This document shows positions 4,619 to 55,314 of a DNA stretch of 64,000 nt, piece after piece (within the stretch, counting starts at the first letter, position 1; the number at the start of each line of letters is the position of its first letter). Both the position numbers and the translations under genes were made by a program. The DNA is taken from assembly GCA_965649265.1 (NCBI GenBank), contig CBFGKC010000006.1, positions 64,001 through 128,000 on the forward strand, read 5' to 3'. Under the pieces are notes generated by a model, which was given only the letters and a program-made list of their open reading frames with translations, was not told where the DNA came from and searched no databases. This DNA is from a candidate division WOR-3 bacterium. Its GTDB lineage: Bacteria > Hydrothermota > Tepidihabitantia > B3-TA06.

Positions 4619-6366
4619 TATCGCACGAAATCGTCGAGCGCGTCAGAACCGAAACCGACATAGTCGGGCTCATCGGCGAGTACGTCACTCTCAAGCGCTC
4701 GGGACGCAGTTTTACAGGGCTTTGCCCTTTTCACCAGGAGAAGACGCCTTCGTTTAACGTCAGCCCTGAAAGGCAGGCCTACCACTGCTTCGGCTGCGGG
4801 GCAGGCGGAAACGCCTTGACATTCATAATGAATTACGAAAACGTAACTTTCCCCGAAGCCGTAAAGAAACTCGCCGAAAGACTCGGGATAAAGATCGAAT
4901 ACACCGCCGAGGACGATCCTACAAAGCCTCTTTCCGACGCACTCGAGATCGTCCACAAGCTTTACCAGGATACCTTGTGGTCGCAGGACGGGTTAGAGGC
5001 CCAGCGCTATCTTGCCTCACGCGGTCTAAAAAAAGAAACAATTAAGAACTTCGGGCTGGGACTTGTTCCCCAGGACGTATCATTGCTCATCCACCGAGCG
5101 CGCGAGGCCAAACTCAGCACGAATACACTTGCGGAAGCCGGGGTTCTGGGAACCCGCTCCGGCAGTCACTATCCGTTTCTTGGGGGCAGGATTGTTTTTC
5201 CTATCCGTACTTCATCCGGCAAACTCGTAGGCTTTTCCGGTCGCATCTATGGCGAGGACTCCAATCCTGCCAAGTACGTCAACACCCCCGAGACCAGGCT
5301 CTTCAAGAAGGGGCAGCTTCTTTACGGGCTTTCCGAGGCAAGGCCTTATCTGAGGCGTGACGGTGCATTGATCGTCGAGGGTCAGATGGACGTCTTAAGG
5401 CTCAGTCAGGATGGTTTTCACAACGCAGTAGCTCCTCTGGGAACGGCATTCACCAACGACCATGCGAAGCTGCTCACACGCTACGCCGATTCCTGTATCC
5501 TTCTTTTTGACGGCGACGAGGCGGGACGCAAGGCGGCGCTGCGAACCCTGGGTGAGGTACTTGCTTCGGATCTTGATACAAGGCTTGTTCTACTTCCTGA
5601 GGGGGAGGACCCGGCGAGCTTTCTTTCAGGACACCAGGCAGGCGAGCTTGCAGAAATCATAAAGAACGCGGAAGAGCCCGTAGGCTTTCTTTACAAGCTT
5701 CTGGCTCCTGAGGGTACAGGCGCGACCAGACGGACGGCAGAGCTGATGATATCTATAATTCGTCGGGTTCCTGACAGGTTAAGGCGTGAGCTGTACATAG
5801 ACGAGGCGGCCAAATTCATTGGTGTGGACAGGAAGATCATAGCGGAAAGGATTTCTGCATCGAGCCCGGACGCACACAGGGTTTCGGGTACTAGATCTAC
5901 AAGAAACGTTACGGGTATGGGTGTTACGGGTGTTACGGGTGGGTTAAGATTCTCGGAATCTGAGGATGTGCTTTTCCGAATGATGGTAGCGAGTTCGGAG
6001 TTCGTTCGCATGGCTTCTGAACATCTTCCTTCTTCTCTTTTTGAAGAAGCGGAGAAGAGGGAGCTTTTGGAGAAGCTTTACGAGACGGCCAGGGAGCGCG
6101 AGCAATTCACCCCGGGGGACATACTTGATTCTTTGTCTCCCGAAATGCAGCGCAGGGTTTCAGCCTGGAGTCTTTCGGAATTACGTTATTCGAGAGAAGA
6201 GTTCGCGAGGGCTCTTGCTCACTATATATTTCAGCGCACGCGTGACAGGCTGCGCAGCGACCTCAAGGAGGCCGAACGCGCGGGTGATGCGGAGCGTGCA
6301 AAGAGTCTGCTCGGTCAGTTGAATTCATTGGTTAAAGAAAGCAACAAAATCTATCAGGGCATATGA
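4615..6366 (+). CDS. dnaG: DNA primase
   Basis: CPFH...CFGC zinc finger, [14 protein letters not shown] motifs EGQMDV and FDGDEAG. Confidence 0.97.
5908..5945 (-). repeat. Irregular CCCGTAAC(AC) tandem repeat inside dnaG
   Basis: gttacgggtatgggtgttacgggtgttacgggtgggtt, encoding [12 protein letters not shown] in the primase linker. Confidence 0.85.
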
Positions 6367-8006
6367 AGAAGAATAAAAACAATTCACCCGCTGCCGCGCC
6401 TTTGCGCGGCAAGGAGATCGCTGAGGAGATTCTCAAGCAACTCAACGATCGGCAAACGATAACTTACAAGGAACTTGAGACCCATCTTCCGGAGACATAC
6501 GTTTCATCGGACGAGGTAGACGAGATAATCGTCAGGCTTCGCGATGGGGGGGTAATGCTCGTTTCCGACGGCGAGGAACGTCCGGAGGAGTCAAAAGAAA
6601 AAACGGGCAAACTGCCCAAAGTAAAGGGTCGCAAGGATTCGACTCGTTCGTATTTCAAAGAACTCAACAAATTCGGACTTCTCACGAAGGATGATGAAGT
6701 CAAGTACTCTAAGCAGATGGAGGAGGGATATTCGACACTTCAGCGAGAGATATTTTCTGCAACAGGAGTAGTCGATCAGCTTATCCTGCATTGCAGAGAG
6801 ATTGAAACCGGTGAGAGACCGGTTGACCAGATAGCCAAACCCGACATAGATTCAGTACTTGACAAAAAACTCTATTTACGCTGGAAGCAGCAATTTTTAA
6901 GGACAACAGCCAAGGTCGCGGAATACAACGAGATGATTCGCGAGGTAACCAAGCGCAGAAACCGGACAAAGGAGGAGGAGGAGGCTCTGGGCAAGTTTCG
7001 CGACAAACTATATCAAAAGATACTTGGGCTTTCTTTGCAAATGGAAGTCGTGAAAGACTACTCCGAAAGGTATAGAAGAGAGGTAGAAGAGCTTATAAAG
7101 ATAGATTCACAGGCTTTAAAAATAAAAGCAAAGGCCGAAACCGACTCCAAGGTGCGTGAAGAATACCAGGAGCTTCGCAACGAGCTCCGTCGTGCCGAGC
7201 GTAACTTCGGCAGACCCCTTGACGAAGCACGTGCAAGTCTTGCACACGTTCTGGAAATTGAGAAGGTGATTCTTGGAGCCCGTGATCATATGATCGAGGG
7301 TAACGTACGCCTCGTTATCTCCATTGCGAAGCGCTATACAAACCGCGGGCTCGAATTCATCGATTTGATTGCCGAAGGAAACTGCGGTCTTATAAAAGCC
7401 GTCGAGAAGTTCGACTACAAAAAAGGGTACAAGTTTTCTACATACGCGACATGGTGGATCAAGCAGGCCATCACGAGAGCGATTGCCGACCAGTCGCGTA
7501 CGGTTCGCGTTCCCGCGCACATCATTGATGCCATCAACAAGATAACTCGCGTGTCAAGGCGTTTTATTCAAAAACACGGGCGTCTTCCCGGCCCGAACGA
7601 GATTGCACACTATCTTCCCTCGTTCAGCGAGGACAAGGTGAAGTTCCTCACGAACATTGCCCAGTACCATGTCTCTCTGGATAAATCCATAGACGACGAC
7701 AACTCTTCCTTCGTCGGTGATTTCATCTCCGACGACAAGACACCTGTTCCTACCTACCATGCGGCCCGGTCGGTTCTGGAAACCAAGATCGATGACGCAC
7801 TAGGAACGCTCTCGAAGCGCGAGGAGACCGTCCTCAGGCTTCGCTTCGGCGTGGACGACGGTGTGCAGCGCACTCTCGAAGAAGTCGGTCAGATATTCAA
7901 CGTCACCCGCGAACGAATCCGTCAGATTGAGGCAAAGGCGATCAAGAAGCTGCGTGACCCGTCGCGTCGAAAGATATTCGACCCCCTCAAGGAATTGCTC
8001 AGATAA
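6363..8006 (+). CDS. rpoD: Primary sigma factor RpoD (sigma70)
   Basis: Region 1.1, non-conserved region, [22 protein letters not shown]...TRERIRQIE; follows dnaG. Confidence 0.96.
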
Positions 8007-8262
8007 CGCACGTATCCTTTCGTCTCTCTTTCGGTTCTTCTATTCTGAAGATTTTGATAACGGTCATTCGATAAGCCTTTCTTAGTTGATTATTAAATTG
8101 AACAGGATGTTTAATTATGATGAAGCTTTCCAGGGGGACATGATTCAAGTTTTTTTCGCAATCGCAGACGCTTAGATCTATTGAACTTGATGCGCTGTAA
8201 CCATGTGAAAGATACGGGATTTGCGTTTCTCTTTGCATCAGAGGAAAGGGACATTTCACATG

Positions 8263-8290
8263 TTGACAGGCTCGCTTTGCGCCTTATAAT
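8263..8290 (+). promoter_or_regulatory. Consensus sigma70 promoter TTGACA-16-TATAAT
   Basis: TTGACA at 8263-8268 and TATAAT at 8285-8290. Confidence 0.8.
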
Positions 8291-9449: not shown

Positions 9450-9456
9450 GAAGATT

Positions 9457-24106: not shown

Positions 24107-24406
24107 TCATCCGCAGCACGATGACGAATCGTCCGGGCCGCAAGTCGCTTCCTTTTTACCCGTTAGCGCCGCCCTTATCATGGCCGCTGCGCAGCCCACT
24201 CCCGAGTCGACGCGTATAGCCTTCGACGGGCAGTTACGCTCGCATGCCCCGCACTCCATGCAAGCGTTGGGTCGAACCAATTTTGCTTTAGGGCTACCGA
24301 CAGGAGGTGTGTTACGGGAGAATACTCTATGCGGACAGACGATAGAACACATGCCGCAGCCCGAACACTTCTCCGGAAAGTATTCGAGTGTGTTGGTCGC
24401 CTTCAT
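24107..24406 (-). CDS. hgcB: Mercury methylation ferredoxin HgcB
   Basis: Two CxxCxxCxxxCP motifs, CMECGAC, GVGCAAA, C-terminal CC; ATG overlaps the hgcA stop (ATGA). Confidence 0.93.
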   Translation of the reverse strand: MKATNTLEYFPEKCSGCGMCSIVCPHRVFSRNTPPVGSPKAKLVRPNACMECGACERNCPSKAIRVDSGVGCAAAMIRAALTGKKEATCGPDDSSSCCG

Positions 24407-28207: not shown

Positions 28208-29512
28208 ATGAAAGCTTGTCTCAGAACAATCATCCTTGCCGGTTTTCTTGCTCTGCCGTTGCTTGCGAGAGCTGCAGCTTCCACCTATGCCGTGCTCGAA
28301 TTCGACGGCGCAATCGGCCCTGTTGCCGAGCGCTATATATCCAACGGAATAGACCGCGCGGTAGGGGAGGGGGTCTCGTTCATCCTCCTCGAACTCGATA
28401 CGCCCGGCGGACTCGACGAGTCCATGCGCGCCATAGTCAAAAAGATCCTCGCCTCGCCCGTGCCCGTCGTCGGCTACGTCTATCCCCAGGGTGCACGCGC
28501 GGCTTCGGCGGGCGTCTTCATCATGCTTGCTTGCAACGTGACGGCGATGGCACCCGGAACCAACATGGGCGCCGCACACCCGGTTAACCTGGGCGGGCAG
28601 CAGCCCGACTCGGTCATGATGGGCAAAATCGAGAACGATGCGGTGGCGTTCATTCGTTCGATAGCCGAGAGACGCGGCCGCGACGCGGACTGGGCGGAAA
28701 AATCCGTCCGCAAATCGGTATCCGTCTCAGCAGAGGAGGCCAAAAGGCTCGGCCTCGCCGATTATATCGCCTCGTCGCCCGAAGAACTCGTAAGGGCGCT
28801 CGACGGCCGCGTCGTCGAAACGTCCTCAGGCAAAGTAAAGCTAGAGACCGCCTACGCCCGCGAGGTAAAGGTCGGCATGCGCTGGTTCGAAAAACTCCTC
28901 GGAGTTCTCTCCAATCCCAACCTCGTCTACATCCTCATGATGATAGGCATCTACGGACTCATCGCGTGGGTGCAGAACCCCGGCTCGATATTCCCGGGTG
29001 TCATAGGCTTCATCGCGCTCGTGTTCGCGCTTTACGGGCTCCAGGTCCTGCCCGTCAATTACGCGGGACTGGCCCTCATAGGTCTTGCAATATTGCTCTT
29101 TATCCTGGAGGTGAAGGTCACCTCGCATGGAATGCTCGCAGTAGGAGGCATTGTGTCGTTGATTCTTGGAACCGTTATCATGTTTCAATCTGTCCCGGCA
29201 GCGTTCGGGATCTCGTGGCCGGTCATCATCATCGTCATCGCGATAGTAGCCGCGCTTCTGGCGCTCATCGTCTACCTTGCCGCGCGCGCGCACGTCCGCA
29301 GACCCACGACGGGAGAGCAGGGAATGATAGGCTGGACCGGCGAGGCTCGTTCCGACCTTTCCTTATCCGTCGAAGGCTCCGTCTACGTTCACGGCGAGTA
29401 CTGGACTGCGGTGCCCGCCGACTCGTCCACCAAAATCAAAAAGGGCGAGCGCGTCAAGGTCGTCGCCATGGACGGCATGGTGCTAAAAGTCGAGCCCGTA
29501 ACACACCCTTAG
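28208..29512 (+). CDS. nfeD: NfeD-family membrane-bound serine protease (long form)
   Basis: LDTPGG, AASAG, GTNMGAAHPV, TM region, C-terminal OB fold VYVHGEYWTA. Confidence 0.9.
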   Translation: MKACLRTIILAGFLALPLLARAAASTYAVLEFDGAIGPVAERYISNGIDRAVGEGVSFILLELDTPGGLDESMRAIVKKILASPVPVVGYVYPQGARAASAGVFIMLACNVTAMAPGTNMGAAHPVNLGGQQPDSVMMGKIENDAVAFIRSIAERRGRDADWAEKSVRKSVSVSAEEAKRLGLADYIASSPEELVRALDGRVVETSSGKVKLETAYAREVKVGMRWFEKLLGVLSNPNLVYILMMIGIYGLIAWVQNPGSIFPGVIGFIALVFALYGLQVLPVNYAGLALIGLAILLFILEVKVTSHGMLAVGGIVSLILGTVIMFQSVPAAFGISWPVIIIVIAIVAALLALIVYLAARAHVRRPTTGEQGMIGWTGEARSDLSLSVEGSVYVHGEYWTAVPADSSTKIKKGERVKVVAMDGMVLKVEPVTHP

Positions 29513-31862: not shown

Positions 31863-31962
31863 TAATACACCCCAAAAACACCCGAAAAAGCCCAAAAATG
31901 ACCCAAAATCTGCGGAATTGGTTTTTGGCTCCTAATCCTCGAACCCGCTCAGTTTATCTCAA

Positions 31963-32092
31963 TTTGTCCCACTTTTTTGGGGATTTTTTTGTCCCACTTT
32001 TGTCCTACTTAGTTATCCACATTTTTGACGCGGTTCGTTAAACCTGACCTCACTTTCACCCAAGTTTTGTCCCACTTTTGTCCAGCTTTTTT
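31963..32092 (+). repeat. TTTTGTCCCAC-type 11-bp repeat cluster (copy 1)
   Basis: Five near-copies; the same string recurs at 55485-55691. Confidence 0.75.
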
Positions 32093-39474: not shown

Positions 39475-39476
39475 GA

Positions 39477-40142
39477 ATGTACTATGGTGAACTGATCAAA
39501 TCGTGGGAAGGTTCGGGTCTTTTAAAACTTTGCATGCAGGACATGTTCAAGATGCTCGACATCTCCGAGAAGATGTTCGAGGCGGCATGGGAGATGATTA
39601 CGGGCACCGGTGAAATAACCGACCTCTACAAGATGGACAAACAGCTCAACGAATTGCAGATAGCCATCCGTCGCCGGATTCTCGAACACATGGCTATTAA
39701 TCCCGGCCAGGATATCAACGCATCCTTCGTTCTGGGGGTACTTGTAATAGATCTCGAGCGCATCGGCGACTATGCCAAGAATTTCGACGACATCGCGCGT
39801 CATTACCCCGAACCCATCTCGGGCGGTGTCTTCGATATATTGCATGAAATGGCCAAAAAGGTCAAGGCGATGTTTGATGAGACCAGGGATGCGCTCGTCA
39901 AGAACGATTCCAAGCTTGCTCGTAAGCTTATGCAGGATCAGGCTGATATGGCGAAAGAAGCAGACAGGTTTATGGATCAGCTCATGGAATCCAAGGATTT
40001 GACCGTTAAGCAGGGAATCGTTGCCGCGATGCTTGCCCGTTACATAAAGCGCGTAAGCGCTCATCTTAAAAACGTGGTGTCGAGTGTGGTCAATCCTTAT
40101 CACAGAATTGGCTACAGGCCTAACGAAAAAGAAGATGATTGA
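39477..40142 (+). CDS. PhoU-domain protein
   Basis: DLERIGDYAKN and KRVSAHLKN; directly follows the Na/Pi symporter. Confidence 0.85.
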   Translation: MYYGELIKSWEGSGLLKLCMQDMFKMLDISEKMFEAAWEMITGTGEITDLYKMDKQLNELQIAIRRRILEHMAINPGQDINASFVLGVLVIDLERIGDYAKNFDDIARHYPEPISGGVFDILHEMAKKVKAMFDETRDALVKNDSKLARKLMQDQADMAKEADRFMDQLMESKDLTVKQGIVAAMLARYIKRVSAHLKNVVSSVVNPYHRIGYRPNEKEDD

Positions 40143-40192
40143 GTTATTCTCAAGGTACTTGACAAACTTCGAAATTCGACTATCATTAGTCA

Positions 40193-40318
40193 TATACAAC
40201 CAGGGACGATATTTGAAGGCTGCGGAGATGCGTCTTTAAAGAGATTCCCGTAACACACCTCCCTTCCCTCACCCCCTCCCCTGGAGAGTGCGTCCATGCC
40301 TCTCCAGGGGTTTTTTTT
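40193..40318 (+). ncRNA. Candidate stand-alone small RNA (family unknown)
   Basis: TTGACA(40159)-16-TATCAT(40181); 5' hairpin; C/U-rich tract; strong terminator; no ORF longer than a few codons. Confidence 0.55.
40278..40318 (+). terminator. Rho-independent terminator
   Basis: CCCCTGGAGAG...CTCTCCAGGGG followed by T8. Confidence 0.85.
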
Positions 40319-40529: not shown

Positions 40530-41003
40530 ATGCGCGTAGGCTTGGGTTTCGACTCTCACCCGTTCTCAAAAGAAAGAGCGCTCGTCATTGGCGGGGTGAA
40601 GATTCCCCATGAGCGGGGACTTTCCGGCCACTCCGATGCCGACGTGCTCCTGCATGCCGTCTGTGATGCCCTTATCGGCGCGGCAGGGCTTTCGAGCATC
40701 GGCGAGCTCTTCCCGGATACCGACCCTCATTACAAGGACGCCGACAGCGCTTTTTTGCTTCAGGAAGTATTCAATCGCATACAAAAACTCGGCTATCGCG
40801 TAGTAAACCTCGACTGCACTATTCTTGCCGAAGAGCCCATGCTCGTTCCCTATCGCGACCGGATGCGCGACCGGATCGCAGAGATACTCGAGATAGAGAT
40901 ATCCCAAATCGCAATAAAACCGAAAAGGGGAGAGGGTATGGGGTTCGTCGGCCGGGCCGAAGGCATTGCCGCATTTGCCGTCGTGCTCCTTGATATCGAA
41001 TGA
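40530..41003 (+). CDS. ispF: 2-C-methyl-D-erythritol 2,4-cyclodiphosphate synthase
   Basis: MRVGLGFDSH, GHSDADVLLHA, GEGMGFVGR. Confidence 0.96.
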   Translation: MRVGLGFDSHPFSKERALVIGGVKIPHERGLSGHSDADVLLHAVCDALIGAAGLSSIGELFPDTDPHYKDADSAFLLQEVFNRIQKLGYRVVNLDCTILAEEPMLVPYRDRMRDRIAEILEIEISQIAIKPKRGEGMGFVGRAEGIAAFAVVLLDIE

Positions 41004-41692
41004 TTCCTCTTCGCGACGAGATTCGACCTAAGAGGCGTCCTTACGTGGTTTACGTTCTTATCGGTCTGAACGTAGCCGTTTACCTCATCGAGTTACTCCT
41101 CTACCTCTCGAATCGCTCCTCATTCGGAGAATTCATCTACTCCTGGGGGCTTGTTCCGCGAAGGCTTTTCTTTGAAACCTCATGGACCGATATCGCCTCG
41201 ATATTCACCTCCATGTTCCTTCACGACGCGCCCAGCCCCTTGCACGTAGGTGCCAATATGCTCTTTCTATGGGTCTTCGGCGATAACATCGAGGACGCAA
41301 TGGGCCACTGGCTCTTTATCCCGTTTTATCTCGTTTGCGGAGCTGCGGGTGCGCTTTTGCACGCGGTCATTACCCCCTCATCACCGGTGGTCATGATAGG
41401 CGCTTCAGGCGCAATATCCGGGATACTGGGCGCTTACGTGGTTCTCCATCCCCGGTCAAAGGTGCTCTCGCTCGTCATCTTCTACTTCATAAGGATCATG
41501 TACATACCCGCATGGGTATTCATCGGCATCTGGTTCGGCTACCAGCTCTTGTACGGTATTCTCACACTCGGAAGCGGGGGAGGAGGGGTCGCGTTCCTTG
41601 CCCATATCGGCGGGTTTGTTGCAGGTCTCATCGTTGCCCTCATATTCCGCAAGAGGCTCCTAAGGGATTACTACATTGAAATCCACCCGTAA
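41000..41692 (+). CDS. Rhomboid intramembrane serine protease
   Basis: MIPLRD, TSMFLH, NMLFLWVFGDNIED, GASGAI, AHIGGF. Confidence 0.93.
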   Translation: MIPLRDEIRPKRRPYVVYVLIGLNVAVYLIELLLYLSNRSSFGEFIYSWGLVPRRLFFETSWTDIASIFTSMFLHDAPSPLHVGANMLFLWVFGDNIEDAMGHWLFIPFYLVCGAAGALLHAVITPSSPVVMIGASGAISGILGAYVVLHPRSKVLSLVIFYFIRIMYIPAWVFIGIWFGYQLLYGILTLGSGGGGVAFLAHIGGFVAGLIVALIFRKRLLRDYYIEIHP

Positions 41693-41752
41693 CACCCGTA
41701 ACACCCGTAACACCCACCCGTAACACCCATCTGTAATACCCACCAGTAATAC
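41685..41752 (+). repeat. Irregular ACCCGTAAC tandem array
   Basis: Three perfect 9-mers, an ACCC stutter, a fourth copy, then degenerate copies; supplies the rhomboid stop codon. Confidence 0.9.
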
Positions 41753-41891: not shown

Positions 41892-41918
41892 AAGGGTTCT
41901 AAGGGTTCTAAGGGTTCT
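41892..41918 (+). repeat. (AAGGGTTCT)3 microsatellite
   Basis: Three perfect 9-mers. Confidence 0.85.
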
Positions 41919-42014
41919 GAGGTGGGCGGCACCGGATGTCGCTTGTCGAACTTCGCTCGGTCGTACTGATTGGTCGAATCTGTTCGTGCAAAATCAGGAA
42001 GTTTTTTTGACATG

Positions 42015-42120
42015 AATGCGGGGTCCCCAAACGGATGCGGAGCAGACGCTTGGGGTAAAAAATGCGGGGTCCCCAAACGGATGTAGAGCAGACGCTTGGG
42101 GTGAAAAATGTGGGATACCT
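42015..42120 (+). repeat. 46-bp tandem direct repeat with internal palindrome
   Basis: AATGCGGGGTCCCCAAACGGATG..GAGCAGACGCTTGGGGT at 42015 and 42061, with a degenerate third start. Confidence 0.85.
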
Positions 42121-44055: not shown

Positions 44056-44440
44056 CACTATATCATAACCGCATAGAGTGAGATGTCAAGAAGGAGGTTT
44101 GCTCCTTTGCCGAAAAGATCGCAAGAGAAGGGTTCCGGACAGAAGCTCATTCGGTTTTAAGCCTGCAGTTTTGCCAGTACAGTCTTACGACTCTGAAGTA
44201 ACTTCCGTAAGACCCATCGGTCGAACTTCGTTCGAGAAAGACGTTGTAAGATCAGGGTGTTTTGGACAAGGAGCTAACTGATTCAGATAAGAGAATCTCT
44301 GGGCAAGCTTGGCTGTCACTATTACGAATCTCAGGTAGTGTCGGAGGTGCTGCAACCTCCTGAAGGCGTAAGTAAAGCCAATCAATAACCTCGTTCACTT
44401 TGTTTATCTTTTCTTGCCGAAAGACAAGAAGCTAGGGAAG

Positions 44441-44602
44441 GCTCTGAGTGAGGGCGAGCGCCTCGAAGGCGCTGGGCGCAAGCTTCACTTCCGCCATTTT
44501 ACATCTACTCTCTAATGAGGAGCGCCGGAGGCGCATGAGCAGAATGGAATTCTACAACTGAGGGCGTCGACATCGAATGTCGCTTGTCGAACTTCCTTCG
44601 AC
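44441..44602 (-). repeat. Dispersed ~170-bp intergenic element (copy B)
   Basis: Reverse complement aligns by eye with 37286-37461. Confidence 0.8.
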
Positions 44603-44659
44603 AGATTATTCCATGGAAAGATCAGAGGGAAAATCTGAGAGGGGGGCTCTGAGTAGTGC

Positions 44660-44717
44660 CCCGTAACACACCCGTAACACACCCGTAACACACCCGTAAC
44701 ACGACCGTAACACGACC
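44660..44717 (+). repeat. CCCGTAACACA 11-bp tandem array
   Basis: Three perfect units plus two variants. Confidence 0.9.
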
Positions 44718-44787
44718 TCGTTCGACTTTGTTCGTAATTGAGGGAAAGCTGCTCAGATTGTCTTATCAGTGTCGTTGAATATGGTTC

Positions 44788-44817
44788 TGAGGAGGGCTGA
44801 GGAGGGCTGAGGAGGGC
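44788..44817 (+). repeat. (TGAGGAGGGC)3 microsatellite
   Basis: Three perfect 10-mers. Confidence 0.85.
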
Positions 44818-46577
44818 TACCACTCGATCATGTAAATAGCATTATTCCAATCGGAAAGTACTGCCTGGGTCTTACCTAAATAGCTCCGTACCCAGATATC
44901 TGTGATGAGAGTGCCCACTTTCTTTCTCTTGATGAGTGACGGATTGGCAGGGCTTGAAACATCAAGAACCCTAAGTCCGCATACTCCGTCGGCCAGATAA
45001 GCCGTATTTCCCGAGAAGTAAAAACCTCTGGTATCGCTTCCCTGATCCCCGACCCATGTCGCCAGTTGTTTGGGTTTCTGGGGATTGGTTACGTCAAGAA
45101 CAATAAACCCTTGAGTACCGGCTGCAACGTAAGCACACTGTTGCGCGACGAATACCTTGTAAACCGCGTCACTTGTCGGAAATATGCTTGCATGCTGTAT
45201 CGGGTCGTTTGCAACCGGATTCCAACTGAGGATTTGCACGCCCGCATTACCTTCGGAAACGTATATGTAGTTGTCGGCCACAAAAATGCTCTGAGGTATG
45301 TCGTAAATGGTGTCAACACAAAGAGTGGTATCGGTGTTGTAGTCGAAATACACGATGGTGCTTGTGGAAGTAGCTGGATTGGTGCAACCTATAAAGATTG
45401 CGCTTCCCAGATTGTATACCGCTCTTGCTTCCCCGCCCAGGGTTGATGCGTCAATAGAAATAACTTCCTCTGGCGAGTATGGGTCCGAAACATGGTATGC
45501 GTGGTAACCTTCCTTGCCGAAAGCCACATGCAGAAGGTTTGCCGGGAGGTAAAGATCGTAGGCGTAGGCGTCAGGGTTGCCGTGAGGAGTACGTATGACG
45601 GTTCCGGGGTTCAGCCCGGCGTCGAAAACCTGAAAGCCTTGCACGCTCTTTTCACGTGCGGCACAGAAAATGTGGTCTGCGGTATTGGCCAGGCGGACGC
45701 CGTGACCTCCGTCAAGATCAAGTGTTCCTGAGAGGCTGTCAGTAGTGGTAAAGATTCTATTCGAGTAAACCCTTTTGTTGTCGGAGTCAACTATCGCTAC
45801 AACGTAATAGTATCCGGTTCCAGGGGTCAGAGAAACGTCCGTCCATGTCGTGTCCGTCTGGTTGAATATTACCTCAACAGCCGAACCGATTGTGTTGGTA
45901 TCGGGCGCGACAGAGCGGTAAATTTCGTAGCAAAACCATCTGGCGTAGGTGCTGGCAGTCCAGGTGAGTGTCAGTTGTCTGGTCGTAACATTTGTGGCCG
46001 GCAAGAGGGTTACTGGTTTGAGGGTATCTTTTTCAACGGTCACAACCAGAGAATCATAAGCAACCCCGCCTTTACCGTCTGAAACCGTCAGGCAAAAAAG
46101 GTATTCTTTAGGATCCCAGGGAGCCTTCCACGTAAAGGATTGTCCTGAATAGATCGTATCCTCATCCACGGATGCCCATTCGAAGGTCAAAGAATCGCCG
46201 TCGGGATCCTCTGCGGCGGTCTGGATGAGAGTGGTATGGCCGGTCTTTAAGGGATTTACGGAAGCGGATACCGATGTTATTACGGGTTGGTTATTTCCTT
46301 TAATGAGTTCGGCCGTCGTGTCGAAAGAAGGGAGTTGCATGGTTAAATCAATCTCATGTTTCCACTCCACATAATCCGTGAGCGCCAACCTCAATTCGTG
46401 ATGGCCGAAAGGCACGTCCTCGAGTACGCAATCCGTCTTTGCTCCTGTAAGGCTGTCGTCGAGGAAAATATCTGCGCCCGAAGGTACCGACTTGATATCT
46501 ACCGTTCCCGTTTGAGGCAGGCAAGAAATTGTCGCGATCAAAGCCGGATAAAATAACCTCAGCAAACCCTTTTGCAT
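44817..46577 (-). CDS. Lipoprotein with PEGA, Ig/FN3-like and LVIVD-repeat domains
   Basis: ATISC lipobox; SVPSGADIFLD (PEGA); DPDGDSLTFEW; AYLADGVCGLRVLDVSSP. Confidence 0.8.
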   Translation of the reverse strand: MQKGLLRLFYPALIATISCLPQTGTVDIKSVPSGADIFLDDSLTGAKTDCVLEDVPFGHHELRLALTDYVEWKHEIDLTMQLPSFDTTAELIKGNNQPVITSVSASVNPLKTGHTTLIQTAAEDPDGDSLTFEWASVDEDTIYSGQSFTWKAPWDPKEYLFCLTVSDGKGGVAYDSLVVTVEKDTLKPVTLLPATNVTTRQLTLTWTASTYARWFCYEIYRSVAPDTNTIGSAVEVIFNQTDTTWTDVSLTPGTGYYYVVAIVDSDNKRVYSNRIFTTTDSLSGTLDLDGGHGVRLANTADHIFCAAREKSVQGFQVFDAGLNPGTVIRTPHGNPDAYAYDLYLPANLLHVAFGKEGYHAYHVSDPYSPEEVISIDASTLGGEARAVYNLGSAIFIGCTNPATSTSTIVYFDYNTDTTLCVDTIYDIPQSIFVADNYIYVSEGNAGVQILSWNPVANDPIQHASIFPTSDAVYKVFVAQQCAYVAAGTQGFIVLDVTNPQKPKQLATWVGDQGSDTRGFYFSGNTAYLADGVCGLRVLDVSSPANPSLIKRKKVGTLITDIWVRSYLGKTQAVLSDWNNAIYMIEW

Positions 46578-46744
46578 CTCTCGTCCTTTCTGAAAGTTAA
46601 TTTAGTATAACCTCGTAATGGGGTATGTCAAGGCAAACAAAACGCGGGGTCGAAGTTCCGTAAAACTTGTTTCATCATCTTGCTAATGCATCAATCCGGT
46701 TTTCTGATTGTCTGCTCCAGGCTTGGGCTAGGGGGAGGAGGCAA

Positions 46745-46874
46745 GGCCTGGACAATCTGGAGTGTAAAATGTCCATTTCTTCGCAGCATATCGATATCCT
46801 CACGTTCCTTCAGACTCAAGTGATAGTATTCCTTGTGCATACTTATAGCAACGAAATTCCACTCACTTTTCAAG
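46745..46874 (-). pseudogene. IS30-family transposase N-terminal HTH remnant
   Basis: YYHLSLKEREDIDMLRRNGHFTLQIVQAL resembles IS30 HTH starts; no DDE domain follows. Confidence 0.5.
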
Positions 46875-46975
46875 GTCTTGAAAATCATTGTTTGTACTTA
46901 CTTCATTCTACTTGACAAAGCTAGGAATGTTATTAATCTTGACGTATATATCAACAATATAATCAAAGGAGAGAG

Positions 46976-47866
46976 ATGGAAAAAACCACAGTCCTTGCAA
47001 AGCTTCGGGTGTCAATGAAATTCTCAGAAGAAGCCCAAGATTGGTTAAGGGAGGTATCGAAAAAGGATATTTGGTTTACGAAAGAAGCAGGAACTCCTTT
47101 CTTTTTGGAATTCAGAGGGTGGTGGAAAAAAGCCCTGATTTCTTCAAGTGAACCAATAATATGTGAGTATTTTCTTGGTCTTGGTTTGCCTGAAGATAAG
47201 CTCCCTCATATTGAGCTATATGAAACTTATCCGGGATCATGGAATATGGATGCATCTCTGGTGATTGTTGGAGCAGTAGGGATGGCATATAAGATTCTGA
47301 AGGGTCTTTCTGAACTCCCCAAGATTGCAGATGGTCTAATGAAATTAAGGGATCGATTAAAACAAGCGTTCACAAAAGAAGCAAATCAAAAAGCAACCGA
47401 AGCCCTTACAACTCAGGTAAAACAGAATAATTTACCTTCTCCTCCATCCAATCCGATTCGGACTGATTACGTTATAGATGCTCGTCCCATCGTTGCGTTA
47501 ACTTCCGTGACTTCTTCCCATGGGCTTCACATGAGTGTTGCTGTAACTCGAGGTGCCTTAACACTTGAGAATCTCGGAGATGAGCCACTAAGGGATATAA
47601 GGATAGGTATATTCAAGAGTAATTCCCCTCAAAATGAATGGAGGTATGCAGATTCTTACATGGGTGAAGTGGCTATGTTGTCCTCAAAGCAAACAATTAC
47701 GAAGGAATTAGCTGACTTTAGAGATTCCGATGATATACCTTTGGACCTTTCCGATGATATTCCCTTTTATGTAGATTGTTGGATTCAAGATATTCACGGT
47801 ATCTACCTTTTTATATTCTACCTAGAAAAAGAAAATCCTAAAGAACAACGTAGGGGCCGACCTTAA
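46976..47866 (+). CDS. AT-rich hypothetical protein
   Basis: 296-aa ORF with SD AAGGAG and upstream TTGACA-16-TAATCT. Confidence 0.65.
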   Translation: MEKTTVLAKLRVSMKFSEEAQDWLREVSKKDIWFTKEAGTPFFLEFRGWWKKALISSSEPIICEYFLGLGLPEDKLPHIELYETYPGSWNMDASLVIVGAVGMAYKILKGLSELPKIADGLMKLRDRLKQAFTKEANQKATEALTTQVKQNNLPSPPSNPIRTDYVIDARPIVALTSVTSSHGLHMSVAVTRGALTLENLGDEPLRDIRIGIFKSNSPQNEWRYADSYMGEVAMLSSKQTITKELADFRDSDDIPLDLSDDIPFYVDCWIQDIHGIYLFIFYLEKENPKEQRRGRP

Positions 47867-47875
47867 GGTCGGCCC
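47850..47875. repeat. GTAG-type REP palindrome or bidirectional terminator
   Basis: GTAGGGGCCGACCTTAAGGTCGGCCC at the junction of convergent genes. Confidence 0.65.
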
Positions 47876-50434: not shown

Positions 50435-51889
50435 CTACCTCAACGCGATAATCTTCCTCGTGACCTGCTTTCCGTTCGCGCGGAGGGTGCAGAAGTAGAC
50501 ACCACTACCCTCAGCGCCCCCCTCCCTCAACGCGATGCGGTGGGAGCCTTTGCCCATCCACCCTTGCGCGAGCGTGGCCACCCTGCGGCCCGCCGGGTCG
50601 TAGAGCGCGAGCTCAACCTCAGCCGCTTCGGGAAGGTAGAAGCTTAAGACCGGCCTGGCAAAGCCGCTTTGCTCCACATCGAAAAGTAATCCCAGGTGCT
50701 TGCGTTCCTCACCCACACCCGGGACGGGCTTGACCGGGATGCGGCCGCGCAGGTAGAGTATCTCGCTGTTGCCGGGCGCAAGGTCGTGGTAAATCAAATT
50801 GACGAACGAATCCGTCAGCGCCACGAACGGGCTGTAAGAAGCGGTCAAGGTCTGCGAGAGATTCGTGTCCGCGTTCCACGTCGCGCCGAGGTCGTGTGAC
50901 TCCGCGAAGTAGATTTCGAAATTGCCGTCGCGAGTGTCGTGCCACGAGACGTAGATGCTTGAGTCTCTCGCCGCAAGCGACGGGTTCATGGAGTACCCGG
51001 CCGCGTTCGAAACGCGCGATGGGCTCGACCAGGTCTCGCCGCGGTCCAGTGAATACTCGGTGAATATCTCGAAGTTATAGTCAAACCGCCTGTCCATCCA
51101 CGCGAGATAGATCACCGAATCCTGGACCTCTATCGTCGGCATCCACGAGCTTGCCGGGTCGTCCGTGAGGCGTGTATCCTCGCTCCAGGTCATGCCCGCA
51201 TCCGCCGAGCGCTTGAAATAAATCTCCCTCGAGCCCGAGCGCGCGTCCGACCAGACCACGTAGACGTTGGAATCCTTTACCGCCACGCAGGGGAAGCATG
51301 AATCCGAAGGAATCTGTACGAGCCGCACATCCGCGTCCCAGGTCTGACCGGCATCCACCGATCGCTTGTAGTAAACCTCGTCCGTGGCGTTGCGGTTGTC
51401 CTCCCACACGACGTGGACGAAGGTGCCCGAAGCCGCCATCGAGCCGAAGCGCGAGCGCGCGGGGTCCGTCGTAAGGCGGACCTCATCATCCCATGTCTGG
51501 CCGTCGTCCGAAGACCGGCGGAAGTACATCTCCAGGTTGCCGTCGCGCCAGTCCTGCCACAGGACGTACACGAGGGAATCCTCGACCGCGATTGAAGGAT
51601 ATGCCGACCCGCTTGGCGTGAGGCTGACCTTCATTGCGTCGTTCCAGGTCACACCCTTATCGGCGGACCTGATGTAGTAGAGGTTGTTCGGGGCCTCGGC
51701 CTCACCCCAGATGACGTGAACGGTTGCGTCCCATACCGCCATGCAGCGGGAGTTGTTGTATCCCAGGTACGACCATGTCGGTGTCTCGGAGAGCTGTTGT
51801 AACGGTTCCCAAAGAACCTCCGCGTCGAGTGTTCCGGTTCCTGAGATCGCGATAAGCAGCGAAATCATGACTGAAAAGAAAGTCTTCAT
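50435..51889 (-). CDS. Secreted BNR/Asp-box (sialidase-like) repeat protein with T9SS-type C-terminal domain
   Basis: Repeated YxxSxDxGxTW; C-terminal LYDPAGRRV...GVYF...RKIIALR. Confidence 0.85.
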   Translation of the reverse strand: MKTFFSVMISLLIAISGTGTLDAEVLWEPLQQLSETPTWSYLGYNNSRCMAVWDATVHVIWGEAEAPNNLYYIRSADKGVTWNDAMKVSLTPSGSAYPSIAVEDSLVYVLWQDWRDGNLEMYFRRSSDDGQTWDDEVRLTTDPARSRFGSMAASGTFVHVVWEDNRNATDEVYYKRSVDAGQTWDADVRLVQIPSDSCFPCVAVKDSNVYVVWSDARSGSREIYFKRSADAGMTWSEDTRLTDDPASSWMPTIEVQDSVIYLAWMDRRFDYNFEIFTEYSLDRGETWSSPSRVSNAAGYSMNPSLAARDSSIYVSWHDTRDGNFEIYFAESHDLGATWNADTNLSQTLTASYSPFVALTDSFVNLIYHDLAPGNSEILYLRGRIPVKPVPGVGEERKHLGLLFDVEQSGFARPVLSFYLPEAAEVELALYDPAGRRVATLAQGWMGKGSHRIALREGGAEGSGVYFCTLRANGKQVTRKIIALR

Positions 51890-51951
51890 CCATTCCTCCT
51901 GAATGTTATTTTAAATCGAATCTGTAGAGAGACCACGGCCGTTGAAGCCAG

Positions 51952-53391
51952 TCAGCGTAAAACAATCAACTTGCGCGAAAGAATCCTGTCTCCGGATTCA
52001 AGAATGCACAAGTAGACGCCTTCCGGAGCCATGCTTCCGGTGATGTCGGTTCCGTCCCACGAGACCGTATGGCTGCCTTCGGGCACTCGCTCGCACAAGA
52101 GCGTCTTCACGAGTCTTCCGGAAGCGTCAAGCAGCTTCAACCGCACGCTGCCTGCCGCCGGTATGTCAAAGTACACCAGCGCCACGCCTGAATTTATGAG
52201 CGATATCTTTAACGCCGGTCCATCTGCGTGGGGTTTCTCGCTTGTCCCCGGTTCAGGCTTATGGGGGATTAGCGCTTTTTTGTAGTATATCTCGTGGTTG
52301 CCGCTTTCGTTGTCCTGCAGGATCATATGCAGGACAGAATCCGAGAGTGCAAGAAAAGGGCTGTAAGAAGTAGCGGTGTTATTGCTGAGATTGGTATCGG
52401 CGCTCCAGGTCGCGCCGAGGTCGGTCGAGTACTTGAAATAAATTTCGGCGTTGCCGTCGCGGAAATCGTACCAGGCGAGGTAGACGGCCGAATCGGACGT
52501 TACCATATACGGGGTGCGGGAGTGACCGGCGGCATCCGTGAGTCTTTGGTCAGGGCTCCAGGTTGTACCCGCATCCAGCGAATGCTTGTAGTATATCTCG
52601 TGGTTGTTCCACGGGTCGTTGCGGTCGTCAGTCCATGCAACGTGAATGTTTGAGCCGTTGACCGCAATGGCAGGATGCTCCGAGTTCTTGGGATCGTCCT
52701 CGATGCTTGCATTTTTATCCCAGCTTTGGCCTTTGTTTCCGGAATGCTTGTAGTAAATCTGTGTGCCTTCTACCCATACGATATAGACGTCTGAACCCTG
52801 TGATCGAACGGCGGGGAACGAAGAGCGGAGAACGGTTCCTGAAAGATTCGTGTCCGCACTCCACGTGGTTCCGTTATCGGTCGAACGCTTGTAATATACC
52901 TCCATGTTGCCGTCGCGGAAGTCCTGCCAGACAAGATGGAGCACCGAATCCGAAACCGCTATCGATGGATACAGCGAGGAGTCGGCGTCGAATGTCAGCC
53001 GCTGCTCTTCCGTCCAGGTGCTTCCGGAGTCCTCGGAGCGCGTGTAGTATATCTCGTTCCACGCGTTCTGCCATACCACGTGAACGAGCGCTCCCTCTGT
53101 CGCGATTGCAGGGTAGTCGGCGGCGCCCGGCGCGTGAGAGAGCACCGTATCCCCGAGCCACGTTTGGCCTTCGTCGAGCGAGCGGGCGTAGCGGATGTTA
53201 TATGGACCGTACGCCTCGCCCCACACCGCGTGAAGGACCTTGCCCGAACGGACGAGCGACTGCGTGTTGTTGTAGCTGAGGTATGACCATGAGGGCGTGT
53301 TCGATATCTTTTGGCCGGGCTGCCACTGCGGCTGCGCCGCGAGCGTTGCCGCGAACACTAAAGCGATGACTGCTGAAAGAAGGTATTTCAT
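51952..53391 (-). CDS. Secreted BNR/Asp-box repeat protein with FlgD-Ig/T9SS-type C-terminal domain (paralog)
   Basis: Signal peptide MKYLLSAV; SxDxGxTW repeats; WDGTD...GVYL...RKLIVLR. Confidence 0.85.
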   Translation of the reverse strand: MKYLLSAVIALVFAATLAAQPQWQPGQKISNTPSWSYLSYNNTQSLVRSGKVLHAVWGEAYGPYNIRYARSLDEGQTWLGDTVLSHAPGAADYPAIATEGALVHVVWQNAWNEIYYTRSEDSGSTWTEEQRLTFDADSSLYPSIAVSDSVLHLVWQDFRDGNMEVYYKRSTDNGTTWSADTNLSGTVLRSSFPAVRSQGSDVYIVWVEGTQIYYKHSGNKGQSWDKNASIEDDPKNSEHPAIAVNGSNIHVAWTDDRNDPWNNHEIYYKHSLDAGTTWSPDQRLTDAAGHSRTPYMVTSDSAVYLAWYDFRDGNAEIYFKYSTDLGATWSADTNLSNNTATSYSPFLALSDSVLHMILQDNESGNHEIYYKKALIPHKPEPGTSEKPHADGPALKISLINSGVALVYFDIPAAGSVRLKLLDASGRLVKTLLCERVPEGSHTVSWDGTDITGSMAPEGVYLCILESGDRILSRKLIVLR

Positions 53392-53631
53392 CCGGACCTC
53401 CAGTTTTTTTCTCCGCCGTCCGGCGAAGTCCACAAAGATTGAGATAAGGATAATGTATGTCGAAAAGGCTCATTGTCAAGAGGGGGGAGGGGGCAGTGCC
53501 TGGAAGTTTGTTGCATCCGGTATTGACAACGCTTGGTCTCGGCCTATATTAAAGATGTAAACTTTGACTCCCCACGGGGTCCCCACGCAGACGCGAAGTG
53601 GATGCGCAGGGTATAACATTCGGAGGTGAAC

Positions 53632-55314
53632 GTGAAACGGTTAGTGCTTTTAATAGTAATCCCAATGATAATCTTTGCAGGGGATGGATGGGTGAGGACA
53701 TATGGTGGAGGTGGAGGATGTTGTGTACAATTGACTGATGATGGTGGCTATATTATTGTTGGGGTAAATAGTGAGCATCTCTCGATTCTTAAAACTGATG
53801 GAAACGGTGATACATTGTGGACGAGTTTTTTTCCTGAAGGAATTTGGAGTATCGGGAAGAGCATTACAGAAACAAGTGATGGATGTTATATTGTAACTGG
53901 GTTATTACATGGTTCGGGGATAAATGAAGTCGGTCTTTGGTTAATTAAGGTGGATTCCGTAGGCAAAACATTGTGGTCATATGTCTACGGAAGTGAGGAA
54001 GGAGCTGACGGTGAGTGTGTACAAAAAACAAACGATGGAAACTATATAATTACTGGTATTGTTAAAGGTGATCTTTGGTTGCTTAAAGCCAACCCTCAAG
54101 GTGATACCATTTGGACGAAAAGATATGGCAGAGAGGGTTACGAGGATATCGGTTTATTCCTCGAACAAACAAAGGACGGTGGTTTCGTAATTACAGGCTA
54201 TAAAGATTATTCTGTTGCTCTGGGAAGCGAACCTAATTTGTGGTTATTAAGGACTAATTCTCAAGGTGATACCCTGTGGACAAAAAACTATGGTGGTTTG
54301 GGTATTTGTAAAGGGACCTGTGTTCGTCAAACCGAAGATGAGGGGTTCATAGTTACTGGTATAAACCGTTCACTCAATGACCTATGGTTAATCAAAACCA
54401 ATAACGCAGGAAACATTGTTTGGTCTAAGATATATGACTGCGGTGTTAACTGGGATGCATCACCTTGTATTCAGAAAACTATTGACGGGGGGTATATTTT
54501 AATAACTATGACTCTTGCTTTTGGTGCAGGTTCCGTAGATTTCTGGTTAGCTAGAACGAATATTGACGGCGACACTTTATGGACACGAACCTATGGAGGA
54601 ACCGGTATAGATTGGCCGTATTATGTACAACAAACAAATGACGAAGGGTACATTCTCGTAGGTTCGGGGATGGGAGGGCTTATTGTGATTAAGACAGATT
54701 CTTTAGGAGATATCGCGGTGGCTGTTTCTCCCACCGATATCGGTCGACCAGACAACGGTGGCGATTATTACGGGGTTAGACCAGGTGCATATTTTACAAA
54801 TTGGGGAACATTTGAAGAAGCAAAAGGCTTCTATTGTCATTGTGAAATTGCAGATATCAATGATTCAACTTTATTCTACCATGACAGCGTTTTAATCGCT
54901 GCTCCCATTAAACCTTGGGAAACAAGATACGTATCATTTGTTCAGTGGATTGCACCTGCGATATCCAGTTTCACGGCAACATTCTATACAACAAAAGCCA
55001 ATAATCCACAGAGAAAGTCAGTTTCCTTTCGTTGGAGCGGTATCGCTGAACCCGTAACACCCGTAAGGTACCAGGCTTCTCCAGAAATGGAGATATCCTC
55101 ATCAATCGGTTCGACCATCACCCTTCGCTACTCGAACTGCGCCGACGGTTTCCGGGCGTCCGTCTACGACGCGTCTGGAAGAGAAATTGACGAGATAGAA
55201 TCGTCCTCAACCTCAGGCACACTAGAATGGGGGGAGTGTTACGGGCCTGGAATGTACTTTATACTTGCCGAGGGCTCGAATAGAAGCCCGACAAAGGTCG
55301 TGCTGGTCAGGTAG
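53632..55314 (+). CDS. Secreted beta-propeller protein with short T9SS-like C-terminal domain
   Basis: Repeats TxDGGYIxxG...WLIKTxxxGDTLWxxxYG; C-terminal VYDASGR...GMYFI...KVVLVR. Confidence 0.85.
   Translation: MKRLVLLIVIPMIIFAGDGWVRTYGGGGGCCVQLTDDGGYIIVGVNSEHLSILKTDGNGDTLWTSFFPEGIWSIGKSITETSDGCYIVTGLLHGSGINEVGLWLIKVDSVGKTLWSYVYGSEEGADGECVQKTNDGNYIITGIVKGDLWLLKANPQGDTIWTKRYGREGYEDIGLFLEQTKDGGFVITGYKDYSVALGSEPNLWLLRTNSQGDTLWTKNYGGLGICKGTCVRQTEDEGFIVTGINRSLNDLWLIKTNNAGNIVWSKIYDCGVNWDASPCIQKTIDGGYILITMTLAFGAGSVDFWLARTNIDGDTLWTRTYGGTGIDWPYYVQQTNDEGYILVGSGMGGLIVIKTDSLGDIAVAVSPTDIGRPDNGGDYYGVRPGAYFTNWGTFEEAKGFYCHCEIADINDSTLFYHDSVLIAAPIKPWETRYVSFVQWIAPAISSFTATFYTTKANNPQRKSVSFRWSGIAEPVTPVRYQASPEMEISSSIGSTITLRYSNCADGFRASVYDASGREIDEIESSSTSGTLEWGECYGPGMYFILAEGSNRSPTKVVLVR

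Follow-up and report, generated by a model that had tools for sequence, protein, structure and literature searches.

Short repeats dispersed through bacterial genomes have been described in several forms. The short tandemly repeated repetitive (STRR) sequences are heptamer repeats of heterocystous cyanobacteria, and the bacterial interspersed mosaic elements (BIMEs) of E. coli are mosaic intergenic repeats. Repetitive extragenic palindromes (REP, REPIN) with their RAYT transposases, and the palindrome-associated transposable elements (PATEs) derived from IS200/IS605, are short intergenic hairpins that lie mostly behind genes. The DNA uptake sequences of Neisseriaceae and Pasteurellaceae are exact 9-12-mers with hundreds to thousands of copies. 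For dispersed short tandem repeats such as the STRR and TAACTGA sequences, the manner of spread has gone unexplained for decades. Direct repeats of the heptamer TAACTGA occur in marine Beggiatoaceae and in some Cyanobacteria and Bacteroidetes, and in the Guaymas Beggiatoa genome they stand a few bases upstream of start codons (MacGregor 2015, PMC4679880). In the intergenic mosaic elements of Neisseria (NIMEs), 20-bp dRS3 repeats flank RS elements of 50-150 bp (Bentley et al. 2007, PMC1797815). Here we analyze a ten-base word, CCCGTAACAC, with the nine-base core CCGTAACAC, which is dispersed over a 64-kb stretch of DNA from a candidate division WOR-3 bacterium (the whole of this stretch is called the window below). 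The family to which this bacterium belongs is an unusually clean case of a dispersed short tandem repeat: a single exact word is restricted to one family, and its close genomes show gains, losses and module insertions.

The source genome (G000) is a 2.74-Mb draft of 27 contigs and 96% completeness, and the window is part of its contig C6. Fifteen exact matches of CCCGTAACAC, at eight loci and on both strands, were counted in the window, compared with a mean of 0.04 and a maximum of 1 in 100 dinucleotide-preserving shuffles of the same sequence. Genome-wide, the word occurs 361 times versus Markov expectations of 2.6-5.5 (orders 0-4), 11 (order 5) and 52 (order 6), and it is the most abundant of all 10-mers. 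Each of the 11 family genomes, which represent four genera, contains between 36 and 361 copies; outside the family, all 50 relatives from the same order and class have 0-5 copies, not more than of the reversed control word. A dimer of the word is present in 11 out of 41 genomes searched, and all 11 belong to the window's family (0 out of 30 outside it). The word is identical across the four genera despite coding DNA that is only 65-80% identical to that of the window. Because it is abundant in 11 independently assembled genomes, the arrays that it forms are not assembly artefacts. They lie near 11 of the 54 contig ends, with 6.4 expected, a slight excess of the sort that repeats breaking assemblies would be expected to give. 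The preliminary description of this DNA, which had noted the 10-mer at eight loci, is thereby borne out both in the window and against the genome-wide Markov background. Its proposal that the word is lineage-wide agrees with the distribution among the relatives, and the artefact that it considered as an alternative can be dismissed. A full-text literature search with the word and its complement, together with the titles and abstracts of papers naming Stahlbacteria, yielded none on this repeat among the papers listed. What is new here, and presented below, is the mosaic with hairpin modules, a count of array turnover, the exclusion of several enzymes and a small RNA gene.

For the analysis of array structure, same-strand CCGTAACAC units at most 30 nt apart were joined into one array. 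The 387 units of the genome, 183 on the plus and 204 on the minus strand, make up 217 arrays: 126 single units, 42 doublets, 30 triplets and 19 arrays with four to seven units, which gives 91 arrays with two or more. Spacings within arrays are irregular, as had been described for the window; among 170 of them, 53 measure 9 nt, 21 measure 10, 23 measure 11, 14 measure 12 and 15 measure 13 nt, while others extend up to 30 nt. A single array, however, mostly keeps to one period. Its copies are all direct repeats of a unit that lacks self-complementarity. Furthermore, the arrays are polar, with exact units at the 5' end of the C-rich strand and degenerate units and a C-rich, G-poor tail on the 3' side. 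Among 215 arrays, 71 have degenerate units (one or two changes) in the 45 nt after their last exact unit, compared with 27 that have them in the 45 nt before the first. The 20 nt downstream of arrays consist of 43% C and 15% G, and the composition is normal in the next 20 nt. C-rich words are mildly enriched downstream; CCCTCCCC, for instance, is found downstream in 11 arrays and upstream in 2. At the opposite end, AAC followed by 0-3 A/C precedes the head in 59 of 217 arrays, versus 3.8% upstream of other intergenic CCG triplets. This prefix is either a truncated first unit or the mark of arrays that started where a partial unit pre-existed. The earlier likening of the arrays to telomeres holds for their look, but no link to replicon ends was seen beyond the proximity to contig ends. 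Regional GC skew is weakly linked to the arrays, the C-rich strand of the array lying on the regionally C-rich strand in 113 out of 185 cases; the estimate of replication-strand bias is unreliable on draft contigs.

The position of the arrays was compared with 2376 genes predicted by our own codon-scored caller of open reading frames (ORFs), according to which 87.5% of the genome is coding. Intergenic arrays predominate: 129 out of 217, for an intergenic share of the genome of 12.5% (p = 1e-59). Another 72 arrays lie inside ORF calls, 15 cross the 3' end of a gene in sense, and one crosses a 5' end. The orientation of the arrays follows that of the genes. Behind a stop codon (within 100 nt) or across it, the C-rich strand is the gene sense in 47 arrays and antisense in 6; inside ORF calls the corresponding numbers are 49 and 23, a sense excess that persists despite the fact that the unit provides a TAA stop in one of the three sense frames and in none of the antisense frames. 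Of the 25 arrays that lie upstream of start codons (within 100 nt), 18 present the G-rich strand in sense and 7 the C-rich strand (p = 0.04). The head of an array is about twice as near to the neighbouring gene as the tail (hand-counted medians of ~119-134 and 270-276 nt), and heads abut functional boundaries, above all same-strand TAA stops. Thirty-five arrays have their head within -40 to +20 nt of a stop codon on the same strand, and this codon is TAA in 27 cases, versus 919 of 2376 genome-wide (p = 4e-6); in 15 of them the unit's own TAA is the stop codon, and in six more the word comes directly after TAA. By eye, a TTGAC(A) box adjoins the head in 13-14 of the 21 arrays that have a divergent gene start within 120 nt. 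A general adjacency to promoters was rejected: 20 of 216 arrays have GTCAA in the 30 nt next to the head, compared with 8% of random intergenic 30-mers, and the motif is not enriched. Two sites on other contigs of G000 are recorded here for their position. On C14 (~39720-39830), a unit is located in an apparent tRNA trailer, directly after a tRNA-like 3' end and before a terminator-like hairpin. On C23 (22032-22082), two units stand just upstream of a TTGACA...TATAAT promoter that faces rho (match C23:22332-22547).

The arrays are junctions of a larger mosaic that includes hairpin modules of ~60-115 nt. An alignment of all array flanks revealed that many arrays border a structured element of ~91 model positions, and an nhmmer search of G000 with a profile built from 16 copies gave 62 matches, of which 22 are full length and the others are sub-modules. 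A unit on the same strand lies within 25 nt of 15 of the 22 full modules (on both sides in seven, on one side in eight), and on neither side of the other seven. An antisense unit is near only two of the 62 matches. Most modules (39 of 62) are located behind a same-strand gene. The module contains two helices with 11 pairs, seven of which show changes on both sides. Since the exceptions to pairing, read on the C-rich strand, are more often of the G-U type (12) than of the A-C type (2, out of 242 cells), the fold is favoured on the C-rich strand as a single strand, consistent with an RNA in the sense of the upstream gene. Similar modules were also found in G002, in G003 and G006, which belong to a genus other than that of G000. 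A search of Rfam with eight module loci returned no match (E up to 1).

Turnover was examined between G003 and G006, which are 88-97% identical over 55 kb of shared sequence and have 15 arrays each. Eight of the arrays in G006 and seven in G003 could be anchored on both sides, resulting in eight loci. None of these eight loci is identical in the two genomes. Unit number or order differs at three of them. At two others, a hairpin module (~60 or 114 nt) inside the array makes the difference, one being present only in G006 and the other only in G003; the two module copies, although at different loci, are almost identical to one another. At the remaining three loci the array exists in one genome only; in two of these three cases, part of the unit (CCCCCCGT and AACACC, respectively) stands at the junction of the empty site. 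With no identical locus at such a degree of flank identity, the arrays evidently change much faster than the surrounding sequence, and the slippage that had been suspected from the arrays of the window agrees with the different unit numbers.

The loci of the window are given in Table 1, and several of them can be compared with orthologs in the family. The dnaG array, read antisense as V-T-G, accounts for an insertion of 14-15 codons in the DnaG linker that is not in the DnaG proteins of G001 (same genus as G000), G002 and G004; in G003 and G006, one unit occupies the same linker. In gene sense, as R-N-T, the unit at 24309 lies in a gene for a 4Fe-4S ferredoxin (HgcB-like) downstream of a CdhD/HgcA-like gene, and in the alignment with its G001 counterpart, the G000 gene has 15 additional bases (5 codons, in frame) at the unit. 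The end of nfeD has a unit or an array in G000, G001, G002 and G006, but not in G003; frames and unit numbers vary, and in G002 and G006 the stop codon of nfeD is the unit's TAA. Likewise, the stop codon (41690-41692) of the rhomboid gene (41000-41692) is the TAA of the first unit in the array at 41686. This array is not in G001, where the spacer has 42 nt as compared with 493 nt in the window, and a relative detected in three DNA runs of one study contributes one 3.7-kb contig that matches up to 41686 and diverges at the start of the array. The array at 44660 is flanked by other dispersed modules, among them CTGAGGAGGG, which is repeated three times at 44787-44818. The copies within genes are in-frame insertions in variable linkers, with the probable exception of the match at 55236: because a paralog on another contig has a match at the same place (C6:119236 and C12:59670, each 70 nt from the stop codon), this copy probably stems from a duplication of the gene, or matches by chance, rather than being an insertion.

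Table 1. Copies of the word and the small RNA gene in the window (positions counted from the first base of the window).
Feature	Position	Strand	Description
dnaG-linker array	5908..5945	-	three units: exact at 5921 and 5930, one shorter upstream; dnaG = 4615-6366, plus strand
ferredoxin unit	24309..24324	-	one unit and six more bases that equal the continuation in the small RNA
nfeD-end unit	29495..29504	+	last codons (P-V-T) of nfeD (28208-29512)
small RNA promoter	40159..40186	+	sigma-70 type: TTGACA, 16 nt, TATCAT; 11 of 12 consensus matches
candidate trans-acting small RNA	40195..40312	+	~118 nt; start at ~40195 inferred from the promoter
small RNA copy of the word	40247	+	inside the candidate small RNA gene
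rhomboid-end array	41686..41750	+	exact units at 41686, 41695, 41704 and 41717, then degenerate units
intergenic array	44660..44713	+	exact units at 44660, 44671, 44682 and 44693 (11-base period), then one or two decaying units
secreted-protein unit	55051..55060	+	P-V-T in the linker just before a C-terminal sorting-type domain; gene 53626-55314
secreted-protein match	55236..55245	-	antisense, (E)CYG inside the C-terminal domain of the 53626-55314 product

The secreted protein at the end of the window represents a recurrent situation. Twenty genes of the genome have a sense unit 190-300 nt before the stop codon, and 14 of them share a C-terminal domain (by eye) of the kind that serves for sorting in type IX secretion, with the unit encoding P-V-T in the linker just before it; on the protein in the window, TIGR04183 scores 19.1 bits, under its cut-off of 23 bits. 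Taken together, the observation that the word is read in several frames and on both strands (V-T-G, R-N-T, P-V-T, C-Y-G, TAA stop), and hence acts at the nucleotide level, stands. The comparison of orthologs yields the motif-bounded in-frame insertions or deletions that had been anticipated, in the dnaG linker and in the ferredoxin gene, and the strand and position of the copies show a preference for linkers, gene ends and the gene sense behind stops. The repeats also change proteins: the DnaG linker gains residues, 15 genes of this genome end at a stop codon that a unit provides, and in many secreted proteins a unit occupies the junction before the sorting domain. In view of these three positions, they are a steady source of variation in protein length and possibly of domain shuffling.

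Other repeats were seen in the window, at 42015-42114, 41892-41922, 44787-44818, 31867-32090 and 55652-55688. They comprise a 46-base tandem pair with a GGGGTCCCC palindrome, AAGGGTTCT in three copies and 11-base units of the TTTTGTCC type. CTGAGGAGGG is among the commonest 10-mers of the genome (154 copies). Around the array at 44660, a stretch of 3.7 kb (44124-47872) is without counterpart in G001, which has 489 nt at the syntenic place; it contains a gene for a PEGA/LVIVD/PKD-domain protein (44817-46577) and an ORF at 46976-47866.

How could such a mosaic arise and persist? We favor, at about even confidence, a reading in which CCCGTAACAC is a family-specific mosaic repeat at the DNA level, of the same kind as the STRR and TAACTGA repeats and the NIMEs, which spreads by slippage and microhomology-primed copying and possibly has a reader at the RNA level. 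New arrays would arise at places that contain a partial unit beforehand (TAA-C at stop codons, CCCGT, AACACC), seeded by microhomology-primed copying from another array, that is, by template switching or ectopic conversion. Replication slippage would then make the array grow or shrink, and flanking arrays would supply the homology by which hairpin modules move from array to array. Copies would persist where they are harmless, namely behind stop codons, outside promoters and in disordered linkers. Behind genes, the repeats would be transcribed into 3' untranslated regions (UTRs), and the word would be kept constant in four genera by a reader of the RNA, be it a small RNA or a binding protein in common, or by selection connected with such a reader. 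Transcription into 3' UTRs and a reader of this kind are suggested by the gene-sense bias, by the strand-specific covarying hairpins and by the position of the word at the start of the unpaired stretch of the small RNA described below; to us, the pattern suggests the reader as the most attractive candidate for the constancy of the word.

Several points weigh against this reading. The seeding step is inferred from only three pairs of filled and empty sites, whose alignments are ambiguous, and the AAC prefix at the heads may be just a truncated first unit. From the turnover comparison, 7 of 15 arrays in G006 and 8 of 15 in G003 were dropped at contig ends or in rearranged DNA, and the gene map is crude, with uncertain start codons. 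Slippage and recombination alone do not account for one word that is constant across four genera, for which a specific reader or a bias in copying would be needed, and among the enzyme classes searched none tracks the repeat. Finally, the word is found at the end of nfeD in three genera and in the dnaG linker in two, but not in the latter linker of G001, which is of the same genus; such multi-genus sites fit selection or hot spots as well as neutral persistence.

The sole strictly conserved carrier of the word is a small RNA gene between phoU-like and ispF genes (Table 1). A candidate small RNA had already been suspected at 40247, and it proves to be a gene kept throughout the family: searched with a covariance model, every one of the 11 genomes gives a single strong match (118-148 bits), and outside the family 3 of the 50 genomes give weak ones only (at most 36 bits). 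The region 40159-40312 aligns across genera far better than the flanking DNA, and both the -35 and the -10 box are kept in all six aligned genomes. The predicted RNA begins with a variable 5' hairpin, continues with an unpaired C-rich stretch of ~30 nt and ends with an invariant intrinsic terminator (~40275-40312). Positions 40247-40259, at the opening of the invariant unpaired stretch, hold a 13-mer (the word plus ACC) that is common to many dispersed copies; the 11 genomes do not differ at any position between a point three bases upstream of the word and the stem of the terminator. The unpaired stretch includes the anti-Shine-Dalgarno core CACCTCC, and it ends in another top-ranking 10-mer (201 copies). 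No Rfam family covers the small RNA region (best E 0.9), nor was any found in the window at gathering scores. An exact 33-base stretch of the small RNA occurs in at least four records of a genome collection, three from Candidatus Stahlbacteria and one from an uncultured bacterium. Among the runs listed, no RNA sequencing run contained the DNA of the window. As a gene that carries the word in every genome of the family, the small RNA is a concrete candidate agent of the word's constancy and may explain it. The dispersed copies are not copies of the whole small RNA, because its 13-mer only is over-represented (121 copies of the last 10-mer window); for the same reason, the idea that they are copies of its tail was rejected, the 16 nt that follow the 13-mer not being over-represented.

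Two further observations concern this gene. Positions 40249-40267 resemble the 3' end of the 16S rRNA of G000 (contig C7, L115:1600-1655), with 17 out of 19 matches in a comparison made post hoc and by eye. The likeness appears when helix 45 is cut out, so that the seven bases before helix 45 are followed by the 7-base anti-Shine-Dalgarno core and then by three out of five matches. The second observation is a locus in the sister family (G012:C104:1966-2090) where a C-rich unpaired stretch lies between a consensus promoter and a terminator; it scores 35.6 bits with the model of the small RNA, but does not contain the word. From this likeness, C-rich small RNAs may be older than the repeat. No dispersed word matching the gene of G012 was found in a 400-kb sample, or about one quarter, of that genome, where the top 10-mers are only A/T-rich low-complexity sequences. 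The weak matches that the model gives in G018 and G034 have the appearance of a coding region and of a multi-copy element, and were rejected as homologs.

The small RNA could play a larger part than that of a possible reader. The word may act in RNA together with the small RNA, G-rich copies in mRNAs being pairing targets and C-rich copies in 3' UTRs being mimics that compete for targets or for an RNA-binding protein. This explanation, which we regard as possible though rather unlikely, agrees with the single-copy presence of the gene in every family genome and with the composition of its invariant unpaired stretch, which opens with the word and also holds the 201-copy 10-mer and CACCTCC. Selection against accidental targets would be expected to produce the sense bias behind stops and inside ORFs, and the excess of G-rich sense copies upstream of starts would fit a role as targets. 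However, the co-occurrence of small RNA and repeat is one phylogenetic event and for this reason does not count as independent support. The over-representation ends with the 13-mer, the C-rich gene of G012 is unmatched by a dispersed word in the sample studied, and pairing requires neither tandem arrays nor hairpin modules. An even more tentative version, to which we assign a small probability, starts from the small RNA itself, citing its 16S-like invariant stretch with the anti-Shine-Dalgarno core: the small RNA would have begotten and fixed the word, and spread of the first 10-13 bases at the DNA level would have put the seed of the small RNA, or the complement of this seed, into hundreds of transcripts in each genome of the family. 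The outcome would be a family-wide RNA network, in which transcripts of the G-rich strand would be targets and copies in 3' UTRs would be decoys or shared protein sites. If true, such a seed network would be a bacterial counterpart of the target networks of repeat-born microRNAs in eukaryotes.

The placement behind genes also invites an explanation by transcription termination. Sites of Rho utilization (rut) are C-rich, G-poor and phased, followed by a pause site, and their length is usually quoted as 60-80 nt. The C-rich, G-poor arrays behind stop codons, with YC dimers phased at 9-13 nt, could load Rho, and the hairpin modules could be the pause sites, both together forming factor-dependent terminators. 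The same-strand placement behind stops, the composition of the 20 nt after the arrays, the period of mostly 9-13 nt, the modules downstream of arrays in the same orientation and the presence of a rho gene on C23 all accord with this proposal. Yet single units make up 126 of the 217 arrays, and the zone rich in C fades out over ~20 nt, far below the usual length of a rut site; generic binding of Rho does not need an exact 10-mer; and one third of the arrays are antisense or inside genes. We consider termination by Rho improbable as the origin of the pattern.

A comparably low probability is given to a DNA signal that is read by a protein, i.e. an uptake sequence, a nucleoid or recombination site, or a Chi-like element, which biased uptake, conversion or binding would maintain and slippage would turn into tandem copies. 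An exact 10-mer with hundreds of copies throughout the family, the nearly equal use of both strands, the intergenic enrichment, a ComEC gene and the weak association with regional GC skew are what this proposal has in its favor. Against it, the copies come and go by insertion and deletion and not by substitution, ComEC is common in bacteria (10 of 14 control genomes), and no candidate reader protein was found. Tandem polar arrays with a strong bias for the gene direction are not known as features of uptake or Chi sequences. Together with gain and loss by insertion, these features fit protein-binding, uptake or Chi signals poorly.

As for enzymes that might move or write the repeat, no reverse transcriptase (RVT_1) was found in G000, 96% complete as it is, and only three of the 11 family genomes have one. 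G000 possesses two Y1_Tnp (IS200-type) genes, neither with a unit within 900 nt, and its Y1 proteins have no match in G001 or G004, which contain 100 and 75 copies of the word, respectively; several Y1 copies in the family are broken by stop codons, and homologs are frequent outside it. Among recombinases, the search covered the IS110 type (PF01548), and none of the 11 family genomes yielded one. Since none of the three matches the distribution of the repeat, RVT_1, Y1 and IS110 were set aside as agents, other enzyme classes being outside the search. One of the Y1 genes (C5:115075-115626; 184 residues, IS200-like and RAYT-like) has its own direct repeat on both sides, which is unrelated to the ten-base word and may belong to a separate REP-type system.

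These findings bear on a non-autonomous transposon, in which the modules would be REP-like or similar to PATEs and miniature inverted-repeat transposable elements (MITEs), moved by a Y1 (HUH) transposase of the IS200/IS605 kind or by a RAYT that targets TTAC in the G-rich strand, so that arrays would be stacked targets. TTAC is the target of IS608. Modules that sit inside arrays in fixed orientation, nearly identical module copies at different loci in G003 and G006, and the two Y1_Tnp genes of G000, one of them with direct repeats, speak for it. It is nevertheless very unlikely in our judgment: the Y1 genes do not track the word, lone genic units of 10-16 nt cannot be insertions of transposons, and neither terminal inverted repeats nor regular target duplications were seen. 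Least credible of all, and largely refuted by the missing enzyme, is templated writing, which the preliminary description had envisaged. In the form considered here, a reverse transcriptase or telomerase-like enzyme would use the small RNA as its template and write the word at nicks or ends of the DNA. The polarity from exact to decayed units and the word within a conserved RNA would suit it, but a small RNA in the sense of the C-rich strand means that copying would extend the G-rich strand and should bring the RNA's flanks along, whereas the sequence upstream of heads is unlike that upstream in the RNA and its downstream 16 nt are not over-represented.

We return to the mosaic repeat spread at the DNA level and to its place among the described systems. 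With DNA uptake sequences it has in common a family-wide exact word on both strands that is enriched between genes and tolerated in some reading frames; unlike them, its copies are tandem, polar and biased towards the gene sense, and are gained and lost through insertion and deletion. Module hairpins behind genes, oriented with the genes and with compensatory changes in their stems, recall the REP and PATE elements, whereas the 10-mer itself is non-palindromic, has no stem of its own, forms tandem ten-base units and is not tracked by a Y1 gene. In its mosaic form, the repeat is nearest to the NIMEs. As in NIMEs and BIMEs, a short repeat flanks and separates modules of 50-150 bases in lineage-specific arrays. 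The NIME source furthermore describes repeat numbers and lengths that vary between close genomes, with recombination at the short repeat as the suspected driver, as is the case here. According to the same text, dRS3 is an inverted repeat at which a phage recombinase integrates, and NIME arrays keep their chromosomal positions between strains; in contrast, the present unit is a non-palindromic direct tandem 10-mer, no IS110-type (Piv/IS110) recombinase was found in any of the 11 family genomes, and three out of eight loci are occupied in only one of two close genomes. Units of the present repeat also occur singly and in frame within genes, in which they differ from NIMEs as described there.

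In its tandem form, the repeat is nearest to the TAACTGA and STRR heptamers. All are short non-palindromic words in small direct tandem sets at 100-200 mostly intergenic loci; related words are unamplified, some copies are genic, the mechanism of spread is not evident, and a post-transcriptional reader is suspected. The differences concern form, range and context. The unit here has 9-10 bases with variable spacers of 0-4 bases. While TAACTGA lies upstream of start codons, the arrays studied here are mostly behind stop codons in gene sense (47), with 25 within 100 nt of starts. In contrast to the wider occurrence of the heptamers, the word is limited to a single family; it stays at chance level in 50 of 50 genomes outside, and nothing points to horizontal spread. 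Finally, and unlike either of the heptamer systems, the arrays are polar and joined to hairpin modules, and the word itself is carried by a conserved small RNA.

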